Shown: in pieces, positions 17,247-41,650 of the stretch | Layout: every line of letters starts with the position of its first letter | How positions within the stretch are numbered: the stretch's first letter is position 1 | DNA from: Bacteroidia bacterium | GTDB taxonomy: Bacteria > Bacteroidota > Bacteroidia > SXHM01 | Length of the DNA: 64,000 nucleotides | Direction of reading: 5' to 3' | Assembly (NCBI GenBank): GCA_050186075.1 | Contig: JBFWYU010000019.1 | Coordinates: 18,096 to 82,095 of the forward strand | Made by a program: the position numbers and the translations under genes | The notes under the pieces: generated by a model | Database searches by the model: none | The model's input: only the letters and a program-made list of their open reading frames with translations | Told to the model about the DNA's origin: nothing

Positions 17247-18272
17247 ATGACAAAAATCCTCTACGCAATACAGGGAACAGGAAACGGGCACATCAGCAGA
17301 GCCATTGAAATAATCCCCGAGTTGCAGAAAAGGGGAAAGGTGGATATTCTGATAAGCGGTTTCTCTTCAGACATTGAGTTGCCTTTTGAAATAAAATACA
17401 AGTTCAAAGGTTTGAGCTTTGTTTTCGGGCAAAAGGGCGGCATCAACTATTTTCAGACCTGGAGCAAAAACCGCATACGCAGATTTTACAAAGAAGTAAA
17501 AAAGCTGCCGGTAAATGATTATGACCTTGTTATCAGCGATTTTGAACCTGTTTCGTCATGGGCTTGCTTTCTTGCCGAAAAAACCTGCATCGGTTTGAGT
17601 AATCAGGCAGCTGTTCTTGCGCCCAATGCCCCGCGTGCTGAGGATGATGATAAGCTCGGTCGCCTGGTTTTAAATTATTATGCACCTGTAACGGCTGCTT
17701 ATGGTTTTCATTCTCAGCGTTACAATAACAGTATTTACACACCCATTATCCGCAAAGAAGTGCGCAGGCTTAAAACAAAAGATGACGGACACTATACGGT
17801 TTACCTTCCCGCCTATGCTGATGAGAAAATAATCAATCGGCTCAGTTATTTTTCTGATGCGCGCTGGGAAGTATTTTCAAAGCACACCAAAAAAGCATAC
17901 ATCAAAAACAATGTGCTTATCCGCCCTATTGAAAGCAAGCTTTTTATGGAAAGCCTTGCTAGCTGCAAAGGTATTTTGTGCGGTGCCGGGTTTGCTACTC
18001 CCTGCGAAGCACTGTTTCTGAAAAAGAAACTGATGGTAATACCCATGAAAATCCAGTACGAGCAGCAGTGTAACGCAGAGGCGTTAAAACAAATGGGTGT
18101 TGCGGTAATGAAATCGCTGAAGAAAAAGCACCGCCCTGTTTTACAGGAATGGTTGAACAGTGATACGGTTGTAAAAGTTGATTACCCCGATAATGTTTCG
18201 GAAATAGTTGATGTCATTTTCCGCAACCATGTTGCTTCAGCCAGAATGGAAAAACTCAGAAAAGTAGCTTAA
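17247..18272 (+). CDS. GT-B glycosyltransferase (MJ1255/VC2487-like)
   Basis: ILYAIQGTGNGHISRA, ISDFEP, GAGFATPCEAL, QYEQQCNA; starts immediately after the plcP-like stop codon. Confidence 0.85.
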   Translation: MTKILYAIQGTGNGHISRAIEIIPELQKRGKVDILISGFSSDIELPFEIKYKFKGLSFVFGQKGGINYFQTWSKNRIRRFYKEVKKLPVNDYDLVISDFEPVSSWACFLAEKTCIGLSNQAAVLAPNAPRAEDDDKLGRLVLNYYAPVTAAYGFHSQRYNNSIYTPIIRKEVRRLKTKDDGHYTVYLPAYADEKIINRLSYFSDARWEVFSKHTKKAYIKNNVLIRPIESKLFMESLASCKGILCGAGFATPCEALFLKKKLMVIPMKIQYEQQCNAEALKQMGVAVMKSLKKKHRPVLQEWLNSDTVVKVDYPDNVSEIVDVIFRNHVASARMEKLRKVA

Positions 18273-38145: not shown

Positions 38146-39234
38146 TTAATTTTTTCTTGCTGCTGCTATTCGCGCCATTGCTGCATTCAACGCTGCCTGG
38201 GCAGTGGTGATGTTTTGCTCTTTTGCGGTGTTTAATATGTTTAAGGTGGTATCGTAAATTCTGGCGGTTTCTTCCATTGTTTTCTGCATGTTGTAGCCTG
38301 CTACTTCGGCATAAACAGTAATGATTCCACCGGCATTGATGAGAAAATCGGGGGCATATACTATGCCGCGGTCTTTGAGCATTTGTCCGTGTACTTTCTC
38401 ATCCAGCAACTGGTTGTTGGCTGCACCGCAAACAATGGCGCAGCGCAGTTGCGGAATGGTTTCGCTGTTGAGCGTTGCACCCAGAGCGCAGGGAGCATAA
38501 ATGTCCACTTCCTCGGCATAGATGTTTCCGCTGACGGCTATGGCATTGTAGTTGGCTACAATGGTTTTCACACGCTCCGGATTTATATCGTTTACAAAAA
38601 CAGTTGCTCCTTCTTTGGTAAGGTAATCAATCAGGGTTTCGCCTACATGGCCGGTGCCCTGCACCAACACCTTTTTTCCGGCAAGCGAATCGGTACCCCA
38701 AGTAAATTTTGCAGCGGCTTTCATGCCCCTGTACACGCCATAAGCGGTAACGGGTGATGGATTTCCGTTGCCCCCCATTTCAACAGGCAGGCCGGTAACA
38801 TGGTCGGTTTCTTTTTTGATGTACACCATGTCCTGCGTTTCCATGCCCACATCTTCGGCAGTGATGTATTTGCCGCCAAGGGTTTCAACAAACTTGCCGA
38901 ACCTGCGCATAAGGGCTTCGTTCTTCTGGGTTTTGGCATCGCCTATAATCACGGCTTTTCCGCCACCGAGTTTAAGTCCGGTGATGGCAGCTTTAAAGGT
39001 CATTCCGCGCGAAAGGCGCAACACATCGTTAAGGGCTTCTTCTTCCGTTGCATAGTTCCACATGCGGGTGCCGCCCAGGGCAGGACCAAGCACGGTATTA
39101 TGCACGGCTATAATGGCTTTCAATCCTGTTTCTTTATCCTGGCAAAACAGTACCTGCTCGTGTTCCATTTCGGCCATTTGCGCCAATACGCCTTTGGCAA
39201 TGGAAGCAGAAACGGGTGTTGTTTTAAACGACAT
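38146..39234 (-). CDS. Leucine dehydrogenase (Glu/Leu/Phe/Val family)
   Basis: GPALGGTR, GGGKAVI, YITAEDVG, PCALG, GAANNQL, NAGG. Confidence 0.93.
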   Translation of the reverse strand: MSFKTTPVSASIAKGVLAQMAEMEHEQVLFCQDKETGLKAIIAVHNTVLGPALGGTRMWNYATEEEALNDVLRLSRGMTFKAAITGLKLGGGKAVIIGDAKTQKNEALMRRFGKFVETLGGKYITAEDVGMETQDMVYIKKETDHVTGLPVEMGGNGNPSPVTAYGVYRGMKAAAKFTWGTDSLAGKKVLVQGTGHVGETLIDYLTKEGATVFVNDINPERVKTIVANYNAIAVSGNIYAEEVDIYAPCALGATLNSETIPQLRCAIVCGAANNQLLDEKVHGQMLKDRGIVYAPDFLINAGGIITVYAEVAGYNMQKTMEETARIYDTTLNILNTAKEQNITTAQAALNAAMARIAAARKN

Positions 39235-39332
39235 GATTTTTTTGATTTTTAAGCGGGGGCAAATGTAGTAATTAGCTGATGAGTAAATTAGCTGATTAGC
39301 TGATTATTTTTTTACCGCTAAGCCGCGGAGGT

Positions 39333-39398
39333 TTTGCCACAGATTCACAGATTAAAAACATAGAACAGCAGACATTAAATCTGTGAATCTGTGGCAAA
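39333..39398. repeat. Palindromic hairpin element
   Basis: Perfect 21-bp inverted repeat TTTGCCACAGATTCACAGATT / AATCTGTGAATCTGTGGCAAA. Confidence 0.85.
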
Positions 39399-39430
39399 CT
39401 ATTTTTCCTATTAAAAAATTTGCCCAACTA

Positions 39431-39462
39431 TTGCTTTTGTCAGGTGAAGTTTATAGTTTAGC
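39431..39462 (+). promoter_or_regulatory. Putative Bacteroidota sigma-A promoter
   Basis: TTG at 39431 and TAGTTTAG (TAnnTTTG variant) at 39454-39461, 20 nt before ATG 39481. Confidence 0.55.
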
Positions 39463-39480
39463 CTGCGAAAACATACAAAA

Positions 39481-39585
<105 letters not shown>

Positions 39586-39603
39586 TTTCCGTTTTCTTAC
39601 GTT

Positions 39604-39919
39604 CATTTTCGCTTCGGGTAGAATGTCTTCCGCTTCGGGTAAAAGCATTTTACCTCAAGGCAGAATCATTTTCGCTTCGGGTAAAATCATTTCACCCTGC
39701 GGTGGAATCATTTTCGCTCATGAGCGAAAACCGTTTCACCTTAGCCAAAGTGGGTTTACCCTGTGGTAAAACCGTTTTCCCCCAAGGCACAGTCATTTTC
39801 CCTTGGGGGAGAATCATTCTCCCTCAAGGCGCAACCGTTGTCCCCCGGAGAAAAATGGGCCTGCCCCGTTCAGCAGCCTGTTTACCCTAAGGGAAAATGA
39901 TTCTACCCAACGCAAAAAC
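39604..39919. repeat. Tandem array of ~15 x 21-bp degenerate palindromes (C-ATTTTCCC-N4-GGGAAAAT consensus)
   Basis: Units at 39604, 39625, 39646, 39667, 39688, 39709 (23 nt), 39732 (20 nt), 39752 ... 39899. Confidence 0.9.
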
Positions 39920-39971
39920 CAATTCTTTATATACAAAACCGATTATTAACCCTTAAAAAAAACCAAAAAAC

Positions 39972-40667
39972 ATGGCAGACTTTGTAAAAGACAACGACCT
40001 GCAATTCGCTTTGCAGTATAAAAATTTCAGCGACAAGGTAACCAGTGCAACCTACGCTGCATTGTTCGGGCTAAGCGCAACCGAAATTGCCGCCATACAG
40101 GCAGATGCTGAATGGGCTACCTATGTAATTACGCGCCACAACACGGTGCCCAACTATTCGCAGGACTGGACAAAACTTAAAAACCAGCTTCGCTACGGAG
40201 GCGATGGACTTACCATGCCGCCATTTCCCGTAGCGCCCGATGTATCAACCCCGCCTGTGATGCCCGCTGTGCCAAACATTGAAGGTCGCCTGCGCTCGCG
40301 TGCCGCCACCCTTAAAGCACACCCCAACTACAGCAAAGCCATAGGCGAAGACCTGCAAATTGAAGCCCCCGAATCAAGCGTAGATTACAGCACCTACAAG
40401 CCCGAATTTACACTGGAAATAGCAGGCGGACAGGTTTTGATAAAATGGAAAAAACTGAAAGCCGATGGCATAAACATTTACCGCAAAAAAGGCAGCGGGG
40501 CATGGGAAAAAATTGATTTTGACCTCAAGCCCAACTACCTTGATAAAAGCCCATCGCCCCCCGAAGGCACTACCGAACAATGGAGCTACCGTCTGCGCTA
40601 CTTTAAAAATGAAGTGGAAGTTGGCGAAATGAGTATTGAGCAAACCATTAAAGTGGTGGGCATTTAA
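39972..40667 (+). CDS. Uncharacterised cytoplasmic protein: helical N-domain, Pro-rich linker, Fn3/Ig-like C-domain
   Basis: No signal peptide; LKAHPNYSKAIGEDLQI segment; C-terminal beta pattern IKW, INIYRK, WSYRLRY, VGEMS. Confidence 0.75.
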   Translation: MADFVKDNDLQFALQYKNFSDKVTSATYAALFGLSATEIAAIQADAEWATYVITRHNTVPNYSQDWTKLKNQLRYGGDGLTMPPFPVAPDVSTPPVMPAVPNIEGRLRSRAATLKAHPNYSKAIGEDLQIEAPESSVDYSTYKPEFTLEIAGGQVLIKWKKLKADGINIYRKKGSGAWEKIDFDLKPNYLDKSPSPPEGTTEQWSYRLRYFKNEVEVGEMSIEQTIKVVGI

Positions 40668-40672
40668 AAAAA

Positions 40673-40804
40673 ATGGATGAATTAGCGCAAATGGAAACAG
40701 GAGTGCAAGTGCTCTACTGGTGCTTTGCAGTTTACTTTGCGCTACTTCATCTTATTATTATAGGCGGCTGGATATGGCGTTATAATAATGAAAGAAAAAG
40801 ATAA
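40673..40804 (+). CDS. Small single-TM peptide (43 aa, or 37 aa from ATG 40691)
   Basis: Hand translation MDELAQMETGVQVLYWCFAVYFALLHLIIIGGWIWRYNNERKR; lies between the 40667 stop and a terminator. Confidence 0.55.
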   Translation: MDELAQMETGVQVLYWCFAVYFALLHLIIIGGWIWRYNNERKR

Positions 40805-40840
40805 AAATCCCCTCTTCTTTTTGAAGAAGAGGGGATTTTT
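40803..40840 (+). terminator. Intrinsic terminator
   Basis: AAAAATCCCCTCTTCTT-tttg-AAGAAGAGGGGATTTTT. Confidence 0.85.
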
Positions 40841-40871
40841 ATTATAATTGCTAAACATTAAAACCAAAACT

Positions 40872-41534
40872 ATGAAAAGACAATTATCAGCCATAGGAAC
40901 ACTGTTAGCTTTTGCATTTGCAATAAGTTCATGCAACTCAGCTGCCGATAAAACCAACAAAACGGACTTAGAAGAAAAGCCCGTTACTCATCAAGGCGGT
41001 TGGTTTAAAGCAGGCAGCGACCCTCAGTATTATACTATGGGAATTGTTACGGGTGCCGGCAGAGATGGTAAAAATACAGGGGGAATTAAATCCAATGAAA
41101 ATAAAATTAATGGCTTCGGCACCTATATGCAAACGTGCTTAGCAGATAACTACAAAGGAAAGCGTATTAAAATGACAGGCTATGTGAAAACAGAAAATGT
41201 TTCTGATTGGGCAGGTCTTTGGCTGCGTGTTGATGTGGATACTGCTTTTGTTGCGTTTGACAACATGCATGATGGCAAAAAGAAGAGGTCAATCACCGGT
41301 ACAACAGAATGGACGATGTATGAAATTGTATTGGATGTACCTGCAAATTCAACAACTATTAATTTCGGTGCATTGCTTGTAGGAACAGGTGAAATTTGGT
41401 TTGATGATATAAGCTTTACAGAAGTTGATAATTCTGTTGAAACAACAGGAATCACAACACCCTATGACTTACAAAATCCGCCTAAACCTTTTACACAAGT
41501 AACCGAACCATATAATCTGGACTTTGAAAGTTAG
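40872..41534 (+). CDS. Lipoprotein with a galactose-binding/CBM-like jelly-roll domain
   Basis: Lipobox ISS-C; YKGKRIKMTGYVKT, WAGLWLRVD, FDNM, GTTEW, GEIWFDD. Confidence 0.7.
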   Translation: MKRQLSAIGTLLAFAFAISSCNSAADKTNKTDLEEKPVTHQGGWFKAGSDPQYYTMGIVTGAGRDGKNTGGIKSNENKINGFGTYMQTCLADNYKGKRIKMTGYVKTENVSDWAGLWLRVDVDTAFVAFDNMHDGKKKRSITGTTEWTMYEIVLDVPANSTTINFGALLVGTGEIWFDDISFTEVDNSVETTGITTPYDLQNPPKPFTQVTEPYNLDFES

Positions 41535-41617
41535 TGAATAATCCCTGGCTAAGCGCAATTTGCAATTGCGCTTGGAACATAAAGGAATTTATAATTCCGC
41601 TTAACCACATAAAAAAG

Positions 41618-41650
41618 AGAAGCCCCGCGCCTAAGGCGAGGGGCTTTTGC
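41618..41650. terminator. Hairpin/terminator with CGCCTAAGGCG core
   Basis: AGAAGCCCCGCGCCTAAGGCGAGGGGCTTTTG. Confidence 0.65.

Follow-up and report, generated by a model that had tools for sequence, protein, structure and literature searches.

What is the row of short, degenerate palindromes at positions 39604-39919 of a 64,000-nucleotide stretch of Bacteroidia bacterium DNA (GTDB lineage Bacteria; Bacteroidota; Bacteroidia; SXHM01), and what does it have to do with the gene for a 231-residue protein that begins just downstream of it? The stretch, called the window here, covers positions 18,096 to 82,095 of the forward strand of contig JBFWYU010000019.1 in assembly GCA_050186075.1. The first-pass annotation of the window, made from the sequence alone, had described the row as a phased array of sites for a dimeric protein, with the adjacent 231-residue protein as the partner candidate, or else as a structured RNA, possibly processed into short units. 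Our analysis does not support the view of the array as a special element, since it is one of about 164 such arrays in the genome. The reading that we favor, at slightly less than an even chance, is that it is a non-coding minisatellite acting at the DNA level, which would belong to a lineage-specific class whose period is fixed and whose sequence is free, and which may serve as a phased module upstream of the gene.

The array lies in the 737-nt gap between a dehydrogenase gene on the minus strand and the 231-residue open reading frame (ORF) on the plus strand. It is made up of about 15 slots of head-to-tail 21-nt units, 13 of which match one unit profile. The unit consists of C, an 8-nt arm, a 4-nt center and a second 8-nt arm (ATTTTnnn-NNNN-nnnAAAAT); the units abut without spacers, and the center is the only variable part. 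Tandem Repeats Finder (TRF) reported a period of 21 at 39603-39718 (5.5 copies, 63% matches, score 97) and a period of 42 at 39631-39718, with the remainder of the array too degenerate for the program. Segmentation of 39604-39919 with a position-weight profile gave 13 units, at spacings of 21 (five times), 43, 21 (four times), 42, and 21 nt. The analysis confirms the 21-bp-period row of degenerate palindromes, each a C plus an imperfect 20-bp inverted repeat, that had been described at first. The shift of register in the middle of the row, noted earlier as a 23-nt plus a 20-nt unit, is also real, since the profile spacings include one of 43 nt (39709 to 39752), that is, a double unit at 39709-39751 with a register shift of +1. 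The closest copy of the array in the genome, on contig C23, has the same irregular layout, with no indel between the copies. A CRISPR array was considered and rejected, as the units adjoin and there are no unique 25-50-nt spacers. A BLAST search of 39500-39975 against phage and plasmid collections gave no match.

The palindromes are well above what shuffled sequence gives. With 8-nt arms, a loop of 2-7 nt, and only Watson-Crick pairs allowed, 12 positions in 39604-39919 have at least 7 of 8 pairs, while in 300 shuffles of the array the average was 0.59 and the highest count 5-6. The comparison of arm complementarity with shuffled controls, which had been named as a possible refutation, thus comes out far above the shuffles. 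When 65 distinct units from five related arrays are aligned, 65.8% of the arm cells are paired, compared with 60.5 ± 1.3% in column shuffles (0 of 1000 reach the observed value) and with 49% or less when the register of the same units is slid. Do the arms change together, as it had seemed at first? Pair 8-15 covaries (C-G in 25 units, G-C in 22, mismatched in 18), and so does pair 7-16 (T-A in 21, A-T in 12, C-G in 5, mismatched in 27). However, many units combine unlike arm types (CGC/GGT, TGC/GGT, ACC/GCA), and the right arm is often invariant inside one array where the left arm varies, so that only part of this impression holds. The units within and between arrays share descent, and unit counts are not counts of independent events. 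The alignment therefore points to a mild palindrome-preserving tendency in this unit family, confounded by shared descent and short of strict covariation.

It is the period that places this array in a larger class. When TRF was run on the 4.4-Mb genome, period 21 was the commonest of all, with 159 of 863 clusters and 25.2 kb; periods 42, 41, and 63 added 34, 11, and 8 clusters, respectively. Period 12 (94 clusters, 4.3 kb) and period 15 (83 clusters) came after period 21 in number. The period-41 arrays stand beside period-42 ones, and two more were seen in the sample of a sister genome (G007; L013 and L021). There are 177 arrays of at least 80 bp, 164 of them outside called genes of at least 250 residues; the gene calls are our own crude ORF calls, which may miss small genes. 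The median array length is 236 bp, and by the same crude calls the genome has 475 intergenic gaps of at least 300 bp, about three times the number of arrays. The flanking genes occur in all four orientations (-+ 44, ++ 41, -- 32, +- 27). BLAST grouping puts 73 arrays in 24 small families and leaves 91 as singletons, and for 55 of 76 related array pairs the homology is confined to the array. Over the class, palindromes cover 22% of bases, as against 10.5% after column permutation, but only 50 of 164 arrays are individually significant, and so the feature common to the class is the period and not the hairpin. Intergenic repeats of bacteria, such as repetitive extragenic palindromic (REP) sequences, MITEs (miniature transposable elements with inverted repeats), and CRISPR, are usually defined by sequence; these arrays are defined by a period of 21, 42, or 63, with the unit left free.

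The class was followed in relatives sampled at 120-400 kb each, with arrays of at least 80 bp counted. This genome (G000) has about 40 arrays per Mb; within the same genus, G003 has 14 in 400 kb (35 per Mb), G007 has 6 in 400 kb (15 per Mb), and G004 has 0 in 140 kb. Genomes from other families have none (G020, 200 kb; G043, 120 kb; G048, 140 kb). In the sampled stretches, the class is thus restricted to part of one uncultured Bacteroidia genus, and such graded densities (~40, 35, 15, and 0 per Mb) would allow a comparative-genomic search for the responsible gene.

Between orthologous loci the period persists, but one unit sequence gives way to another. The locus on contig C8 and that on G003:C2 have the leader, the tail, and the gene in common, and their proteins are each about 65% identical to the 231-residue protein of the window; the units differ, TTTTGCCAACGCAAGAATCAT versus CCGTGCCGAGGCACCAAAGGT. 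Furthermore, an array can appear in a spacer that is array-free in sister species. At the site orthologous to that of the C23 copy, G004 is nearly without a spacer; a terminator is all that is present in G001 and G007, and G003 carries a period-21 array of 12 copies with unrelated units. Beside the dehydrogenase gene, the leader recurs in G006 together with an (AG)13 tract, up to the end of the contig; period-21 arrays of other kinds are present in G001 and G003, and there is none in G007 or G004. The whole interval from the dehydrogenase to an ABC transporter (39235-41646, compared with L069-L072) is variable across the genus: it holds an array and a toxin-antitoxin-like pair in G003, an array and a Kelch-like secreted protein in G001, and an extra minus-strand gene in G007, while in G004 another gene follows directly.

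The arrays are not scattered evenly with respect to genes. The gene for the 231-residue protein is one of seven paralogues in the genome, and a period-21 or period-42 array lies just upstream of six of them. Among its homologues in the genus, a clear array of period 21, 42, or 63 is found 50-250 nt before the start codon in 19 of the 23 that are assessable, two further homologues being at contig starts, and three of three further loci in metagenome-assembled genomes (MAGs) also have an upstream array. The link of the array to the adjacent gene, which had been noticed from this one locus, is therefore not due to chance. It extends to other genes as well: seven paralogous families, one of them that of the 231-residue protein, have arrays before 46 of their 62 genes (17/22, 5/9, 6/7, 5/7, 4/6, 5/6, and 4/5 by family), compared with 126 of 3581 other genes (Fisher p = 3e-50). 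The representatives of the seven families apparently have a helical N-terminal part and a beta-sandwich C-terminal part, which is fn3 or CarboxypepD_reg where Pfam matches, and by eye they show no obvious N-terminal signal peptide. Profile comparison joins families 1, 8, 17, 18, and 12 and does not join the 231-residue family or family 19. In a separate observation, a family of 92 large repeat-rich proteins has 15 arrays directly downstream of its members; its representative ends, in our own reading, in a C-terminal domain like those of the type IX secretion system.

The AlphaFold model of the 231-residue protein (mean predicted local distance difference test score 86.4) has helices at residues 9-127, followed by a Pro-rich linker and, at 146-229, by an Fn3 domain. 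All of the significant structural matches, from Foldseek, are to Fn3, and there is no recognized nucleic-acid-binding fold among them. The protein has no match in Pfam, NCBIfam, or PHROGs, and other sequence searches return only hypothetical proteins. For the neighboring proteins, Pfam, NCBIfam, PHROGs, a protein atlas, and homologue and fold searches identified only fn3 and CarboxypepD_reg C-terminal domains. The gene evolves very fast, as the positional orthologue in G007 (G007:C11:54119-54640) is 43-50% identical to it, compared with 93% for the G007 dehydrogenase only 2 kb away; the units before this orthologue are unrelated to those in the window.

The closest relative of the array itself, the C23 copy, is 316 nt long and 87% identical to the copy in the window (C19), with 42 substitutions and no indel. 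The two share the (AG)n tract, the 32-nt leader, and about 25 nt of the tail. The C23 copy lies in the spacer between a gene for a 475-residue outer-membrane-like protein and a convergent gene, bounded by (GA)5 and (GA)3. Looser relatives are on contigs C35, C3, C8, and C52, making seven related segments at six loci in the genome. The unit family precedes genes for a 1498-residue secreted protein (C3) and a 142-residue protein (C35), and at C23 there is no downstream gene. On its right, the C23 copy is flanked by sequence similar to that found left of the window's (AG) tract (69% of columns alike and one block of 14 nt identical, in a single weak alignment). This layout is as might be expected of a circular form opened in the (AG) run, to which we give little weight; in other array families, circular permutation was found only in trivial same-locus cases. 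Inspection by eye of the two ends of the C19/C23 homology showed neither terminal inverted repeats nor target duplications, for which no systematic search was made.

Does the array encode anything, as protein or as RNA? It might be a decayed or frameshifted gene for a heptad-repeat protein, since 21 nt are seven codons and one frame reads I-I-F-x-x-G-K-like on both sides of the register shift, but this is extremely improbable. The longest ORFs over the array are of 48, 62, and 45 residues, and this array, the C23 copy, and that on C35 have stops in all six frames, although stop-free frames are present in those on C3 and C8, over the part that was scanned. Substitutions between C19 and C23 are divided 9/13/20 by codon phase, period 3 is the weakest harmonic across all arrays of the class, and the palindromic make-up is strand-symmetric. 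Because no frame stays open through the array, the constraint is not at the protein level; here the first-pass annotation, which had placed it at the level of the nucleic acid, is supported by the six-frame stops in three of the five related arrays, by the weak period-3 signal, and by loops having changed about twice as often as arms between C19 and C23. A few arrays of period 21, 42, or 63 do lie within very long ORFs (1737 and 2201 residues; C1:58154-61140, C62:15338-17691, C24:57925-58145, C7:120612-120738), and these look like coding heptad or 14-residue repeats. In practice the arrays give rise to spurious ORFs, with 53 of 182 arrays inside some stop-to-stop frame of at least 120 residues. 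A structured RNA is a less extreme proposal, though still rather improbable. The array would then be the 5' leader of the 231-residue gene's mRNA or an RNA of its own, in which the row of hairpins stabilizes, attenuates, or docks proteins, and is perhaps cut into pieces of unit size. When G-T pairs are allowed, the plus strand has 34 positions with at least 7 of 8 pairs, 9 of them perfect 8-bp stems, and the minus strand has 27 and 4; in the 65 units, with wobble pairs counted, 74.6% of arm cells are paired on the plus strand compared with 70.4% on the minus strand, and position 5-18 is U-G in 31 units and C-A in 4. Loops have changed faster than stems between C19 and C23 (11 of 52 loop positions versus 23 of 208 arm positions, Fisher p = 0.066), and of the 10 changes that fall on paired positions, 6 leave the pair intact, one through compensation. 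One unit scores as terminator-like, with a hairpin followed by CAUUUU, and the four related arrays with a same-direction downstream gene share their orientation to it, by eye. Furthermore, for some members of the class the distance from the end of the array to a start codon is 28-50 nt, and a site resembling the Bacteroidota promoter box TAnnTTTG lies upstream of the array in 8 of 44 array-linked genes.

However, the U-G counts are not independent, because the units share descent, and the arms also show many uncompensated combinations. Rfam 15, searched at a permissive threshold, gave no family at its gathering score, the best scores in the array being 12.8-24.7 bits against cut-offs of 36-142. 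The minus strand of the array folds at -140.7 kcal/mol and the plus strand at -119.5 kcal/mol, with an equal z of about -6.7 on each; the energies of both strands lie well below those of shuffled controls because the palindromic repeat lets the units pair mutually. Over the class, the imperfections of near-palindromes on the sense strand are G-T in 515 cells and A-C in 594, with G-T in excess in 27 arrays and the reverse in 31. Related array pairs are oriented concordantly with respect to the downstream gene in 7 cases and discordantly in 10, and among gene-linked arrays the sense strand folds better in 15 of 44 and the antisense strand in 29 of 44. Wobble pairs, orientation, and folding were thus looked at for a sign of sense-strand RNA structure at class level, and none was found. 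One copy of the array (C23) is downstream of a gene in a convergent spacer. In run X10, which is labeled RNA-Seq and flagged as probably DNA, the array is present at about 93-97% identity, gapless in the covered pieces, and in our own reading the arm-position differences of this strain variant are without visible compensation. Contigs from RNA libraries fall on the gene (X21, 39957-40139, no differences; X22, 40273-40550), with a short piece at 39269-39309, and none on the array, although missing cover is uninformative about transcription of the array. These results do not support the structured or processed RNA that had been proposed; the RNA reading is weakened at class level, and the plus-strand wobble pairing of this unit family leaves it some support, which is weak.

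Two other explanations take the array as DNA. In one, the 231-residue protein binds its own array as a dimer, in autoregulation or in a centromere-like complex, and protein and units co-evolve. The upstream arrays at six of seven paralogues, 19 of 23 homologues, and three of three MAG loci are what this would predict, most arrays of the 231-residue family are palindromic in our own reading of the consensus units, and the protein evolves fast compared with the neighboring dehydrogenase. Nevertheless, we regard a private operator as highly unlikely. The modeled helical bundle and Fn3 domain match no DNA- or RNA-binding fold, and the same unit family stands before the unrelated genes on C3 and C35 and at C23 with no gene downstream. 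Orthologous loci, such as those on C8 and G003:C2, carry different units. Moreover, six other families have the same link to arrays, and about 120 arrays have no such neighboring gene. The proposal of the 231-residue protein as the binding partner is thus not supported. In the other explanation, the arrays are selfish or neutral MITE-like minisatellites with no function for the host, and those before gene families were inherited with the genes and kept by concerted evolution. We consider this unlikely, but more so than any other alternative it deserves attention. The C23 copy occupies a spacer that is array-free in three sister species and holds a different array in the fourth, most related pairs share the array alone, and every gene orientation occurs. 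The density varies widely within the genus, most arrays are degenerate, this one included, and the flank and (AG) layout at C23 is what a circular form opened in the (AG) run would be expected to give. There is also a published analogue, BrickBuilt, described as a 23-nt minisatellite with a leader and a tail in 19 intergenic copies (PMC4596501). Against this reading, the ends of the homology showed by eye no terminal inverted repeats or target duplications, no transposase link was found, and random insertion does not predict the 46 of 62 versus 126 of 3581. Gene-linked arrays are not orientation-blind, as C exceeds G on the sense strand in 33 of 44 (p = 0.0013). Recognizable arrays have been kept before homologues that have diverged to 30-50% identity. 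Bacterial genomes usually have a deletion bias, so that this retention is unexpected under neutrality.

How, then, might a DNA-level minisatellite of fixed period arise and act? Amplification of a 21-bp unit in register, by slippage or unequal exchange, would produce the arrays, and the same process would produce the 42- and 63-bp higher orders. Now and then an array would be copied into another intergenic site, and point substitutions would later erode it. An array before a gene, as here, may act at the DNA level, and would be neither coding, nor a conserved structured RNA, nor a private operator of the 231-residue protein. Since 21 bp is two helical turns, all of the units lie on one face of the helix. 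The array might thus be a phased platform just upstream of the putative promoter of the 231-residue gene, suited to a dimeric or architectural protein that binds cooperatively along that face. In our analysis this is the most economical mechanism. Some selected role can be argued because arrays persist before several rapidly diverging gene families despite the replacement of the repeats between species. The phased array of dimer sites proposed in the first-pass annotation survives only in this generic form.

Several observations weigh against the DNA-level reading. With 50 of 164 arrays significantly palindromic, and 62 less than 10% palindromic, dimer sites are not a feature of the class. A promoter role cannot be general, because 27 arrays lie between convergent genes, a place in which a promoter is not expected, and so does the C23 paralogue of this one. 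The 10.5-bp harmonic of A/T and AA/TT content over the arrays is not raised, and so there is no extra support for intrinsic curvature. The fixed period of 21 bp itself is not accounted for. The wobble bias of the plus strand in this unit family and the excess of U-G at position 5-18, both described above, fit an RNA reading, and the TAnnTTTG-like sites in array-linked genes are upstream of the array in the 8 of 44 already mentioned and downstream of it in only 5 of 44. The box is valid in this genome, where it peaks at -40 to -21, and the canonical form is absent from the tail of this array (39920-39971). About 30 of the 44 array-linked genes have no TAnnTTTG in the leader, array, or tail, which places the arrays neither inside nor outside the transcripts.

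If the period is selected, this would be helical-phasing regulation at a scale not described in bacteria; if it is imposed by a mutational mechanism, it points to an unknown ruler. There is also a bolder proposal. In part of the genus, a process with a molecular ruler might build tandem arrays with a unit of exactly two helical turns from arbitrary sequence, and these might be used as sequence-free, phase-defined upstream modules for a fast-evolving superfamily of proteins with helical and Ig-like parts, being read by their period and shape and not by their sequence, with a hypermutable (AG)n tract that could switch the module at this locus. Taken as a whole, we think this improbable, though not fanciful.

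Are there known systems of this kind? The REP sequences and bacterial interspersed mosaic elements (BIMEs) of Proteobacteria are short, imperfect intergenic palindromes with one consensus per genome, and they alternate in orientation within clusters. The arrays resemble them as short, imperfect palindromes in intergenic DNA that are sometimes clustered; this assignment was rejected, as the units are head-to-tail and have a fixed period, and by sequence the arrays form 24 families and leave 91 singletons. Iterons of plasmids and centromeres of the parC type are ~20-bp direct repeats just upstream of a gene, as is the array here. They were also rejected, because no Rep-, ParR-, or ParG-type neighbor was found with Pfam, NCBIfam, or PHROGs, the adjacent protein has an Fn3 fold, and the arrays are chromosomal and in many copies.

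The closest published element, in our comparison, is BrickBuilt of Porphyromonas gingivalis, which is described as a 23-nt spacerless intergenic tandem repeat in 19 copies, with IS5-like terminal inverted repeats, a leader and a tail, predicted stem-loops, no Rfam match, and a narrow host range (PMC4596501). By that description, the two have in common the phylum, a spacerless intergenic unit of ~20 nt, many copies, predicted stem-loops, a narrow host range, and the lack of an Rfam match. The same account mentions 41- and 22-nt tandem repeats in P. gingivalis (PMC4596501), and there are 11 period-41 arrays here. Unlike BrickBuilt, which is presented as one sequence family, the ~164 arrays here share a period and are divided among the 24 small families and 91 singletons; terminal inverted repeats are not seen by eye, and the arrays are tied to particular gene families. 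The leader and tail of BrickBuilt have a counterpart in those shared by C19 and C23, whereas class-wide 55 of 76 related pairs share no flank. For a phased platform, a parallel is the ptx promoter, where six BvgA dimers at 22-bp spacing reach the -35 element (PMC7250471). The BvgA arrays of ptx and fha, as that source presents them, likewise have inverted-repeat sites every two turns (22 versus 21 bp) on one face, many of them weak and degenerate, and lie upstream of, and reach towards, a promoter, which at our locus is putative. In contrast, they are described with 3-6 sites that are not recognizable tandem repeats and with one regulator for all, while an array here has 10-15 near-identical units, the unit sequences come in dozens of unrelated kinds, and some arrays lie away from promoters. 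The tandem direct repeats of Borgs are reported as lineage-specific, very frequent, recent, independent, and fast-evolving (PMC9879509). Unlike the present arrays, they do not appear to have a common period and appear often to lie in ORFs, on archaeal extrachromosomal elements (PMC9879509). A limited literature search turned up no account of 21-bp arrays spread over a whole genome in Bacteroidota.

The coordinates of the array and of the features around it are collected in Table 1.

Table 1. The array and its surroundings, in window positions
Feature	Position	Strand	Remarks
Leu/Phe/Val-type dehydrogenase gene (LeuDH)	38146-39234	-	Pfam ELFV_dehydrog
(AG)22 tract, left edge of the element	39528-39571	+	TRF, 22 copies, 100%
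Leader, 32 nt, from (AG) tract to first unit	39572-39603	+	aligns with the C23 copy within the 339-nt, 87% match
Units 1-6	39604-39731	+	five of 21 nt; the sixth, of 23 nt, contains the perfect 20-nt palindrome TTTTCGCTCATGAGCGAAAA
Irregular stretch, period break and register shift	39732-39772	+	by eye, a 22-nt and a 19-nt unit; by profile, one unit, starting at 39752
Units 9-12	39773-39856	+	four of 21 nt (profile segmentation)
Divergent slot	~39857-39877	+	unrelated sequence, no match to the unit profile
Last two units	39878-39898, 39899-39919	+	profile segmentation
Tail, from array to start codon	39920-39971	+	conserved blocks TTTATATACAAAAC (39926-39939) and ATTAACCCTTAAAA (39945-39958)
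231-residue gene	39972-40667	+	ORF; helical N-terminal domain, Pro-rich linker, C-terminal Fn3; no family assignment
Terminator-like two-way hairpin	40801-40842	.	19-pair stem, T runs on both strands; between the 231-residue gene and the next gene

The (AG)22 tract is the sole dinucleotide run of at least 7 copies in the 4.4-Mb genome. Its counterparts are (GA)5 in the C23 copy, (AG)13 by LeuDH in G006, (AG)16.5 in G006:C121, and (AG)7.5 in G003:C1. Public contigs end at the tract, so that assemblies break there, and it is a candidate for a hypermutable tract beside the array. The tail was compared in eight homologous upstream regions, in three more, and in the 44 array-linked genes of the genome; the blocks TTTATATA(C)AAA and ATTAACC(C)TTAAAA lie between the array and the start codon. 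The strong 19-pair hairpin closes the 231-residue gene, and the gene therefore looks monocistronic.

Between the dehydrogenase gene and the (AG) tract there are other small features. At 39335-39396 there is a long, near-perfect hairpin with arms of ~22 bp (TGCCACAGATTCACAGATT...). It is a dispersed repeat that matches about 38 places in the genome, and a pile of several run X2 contigs lies on it. An octamer repeat, ATTAGCTG, is present in 4.5 copies at 39271-39306. A ATTAGCTG...ATTAGCTG-like block also adjoins an unrelated array in G003 (L121); octamer clusters as an end of the element were considered and dropped, there being three clusters in the whole genome. A canonical Bacteroidota -7 box, TACATTTG, lies at 39260-39267 on the minus strand, about 26 nt upstream of the start of the dehydrogenase gene, and the block GGGGGCAAA(A/T)GTAGTAA around it is conserved in all five sister genomes.

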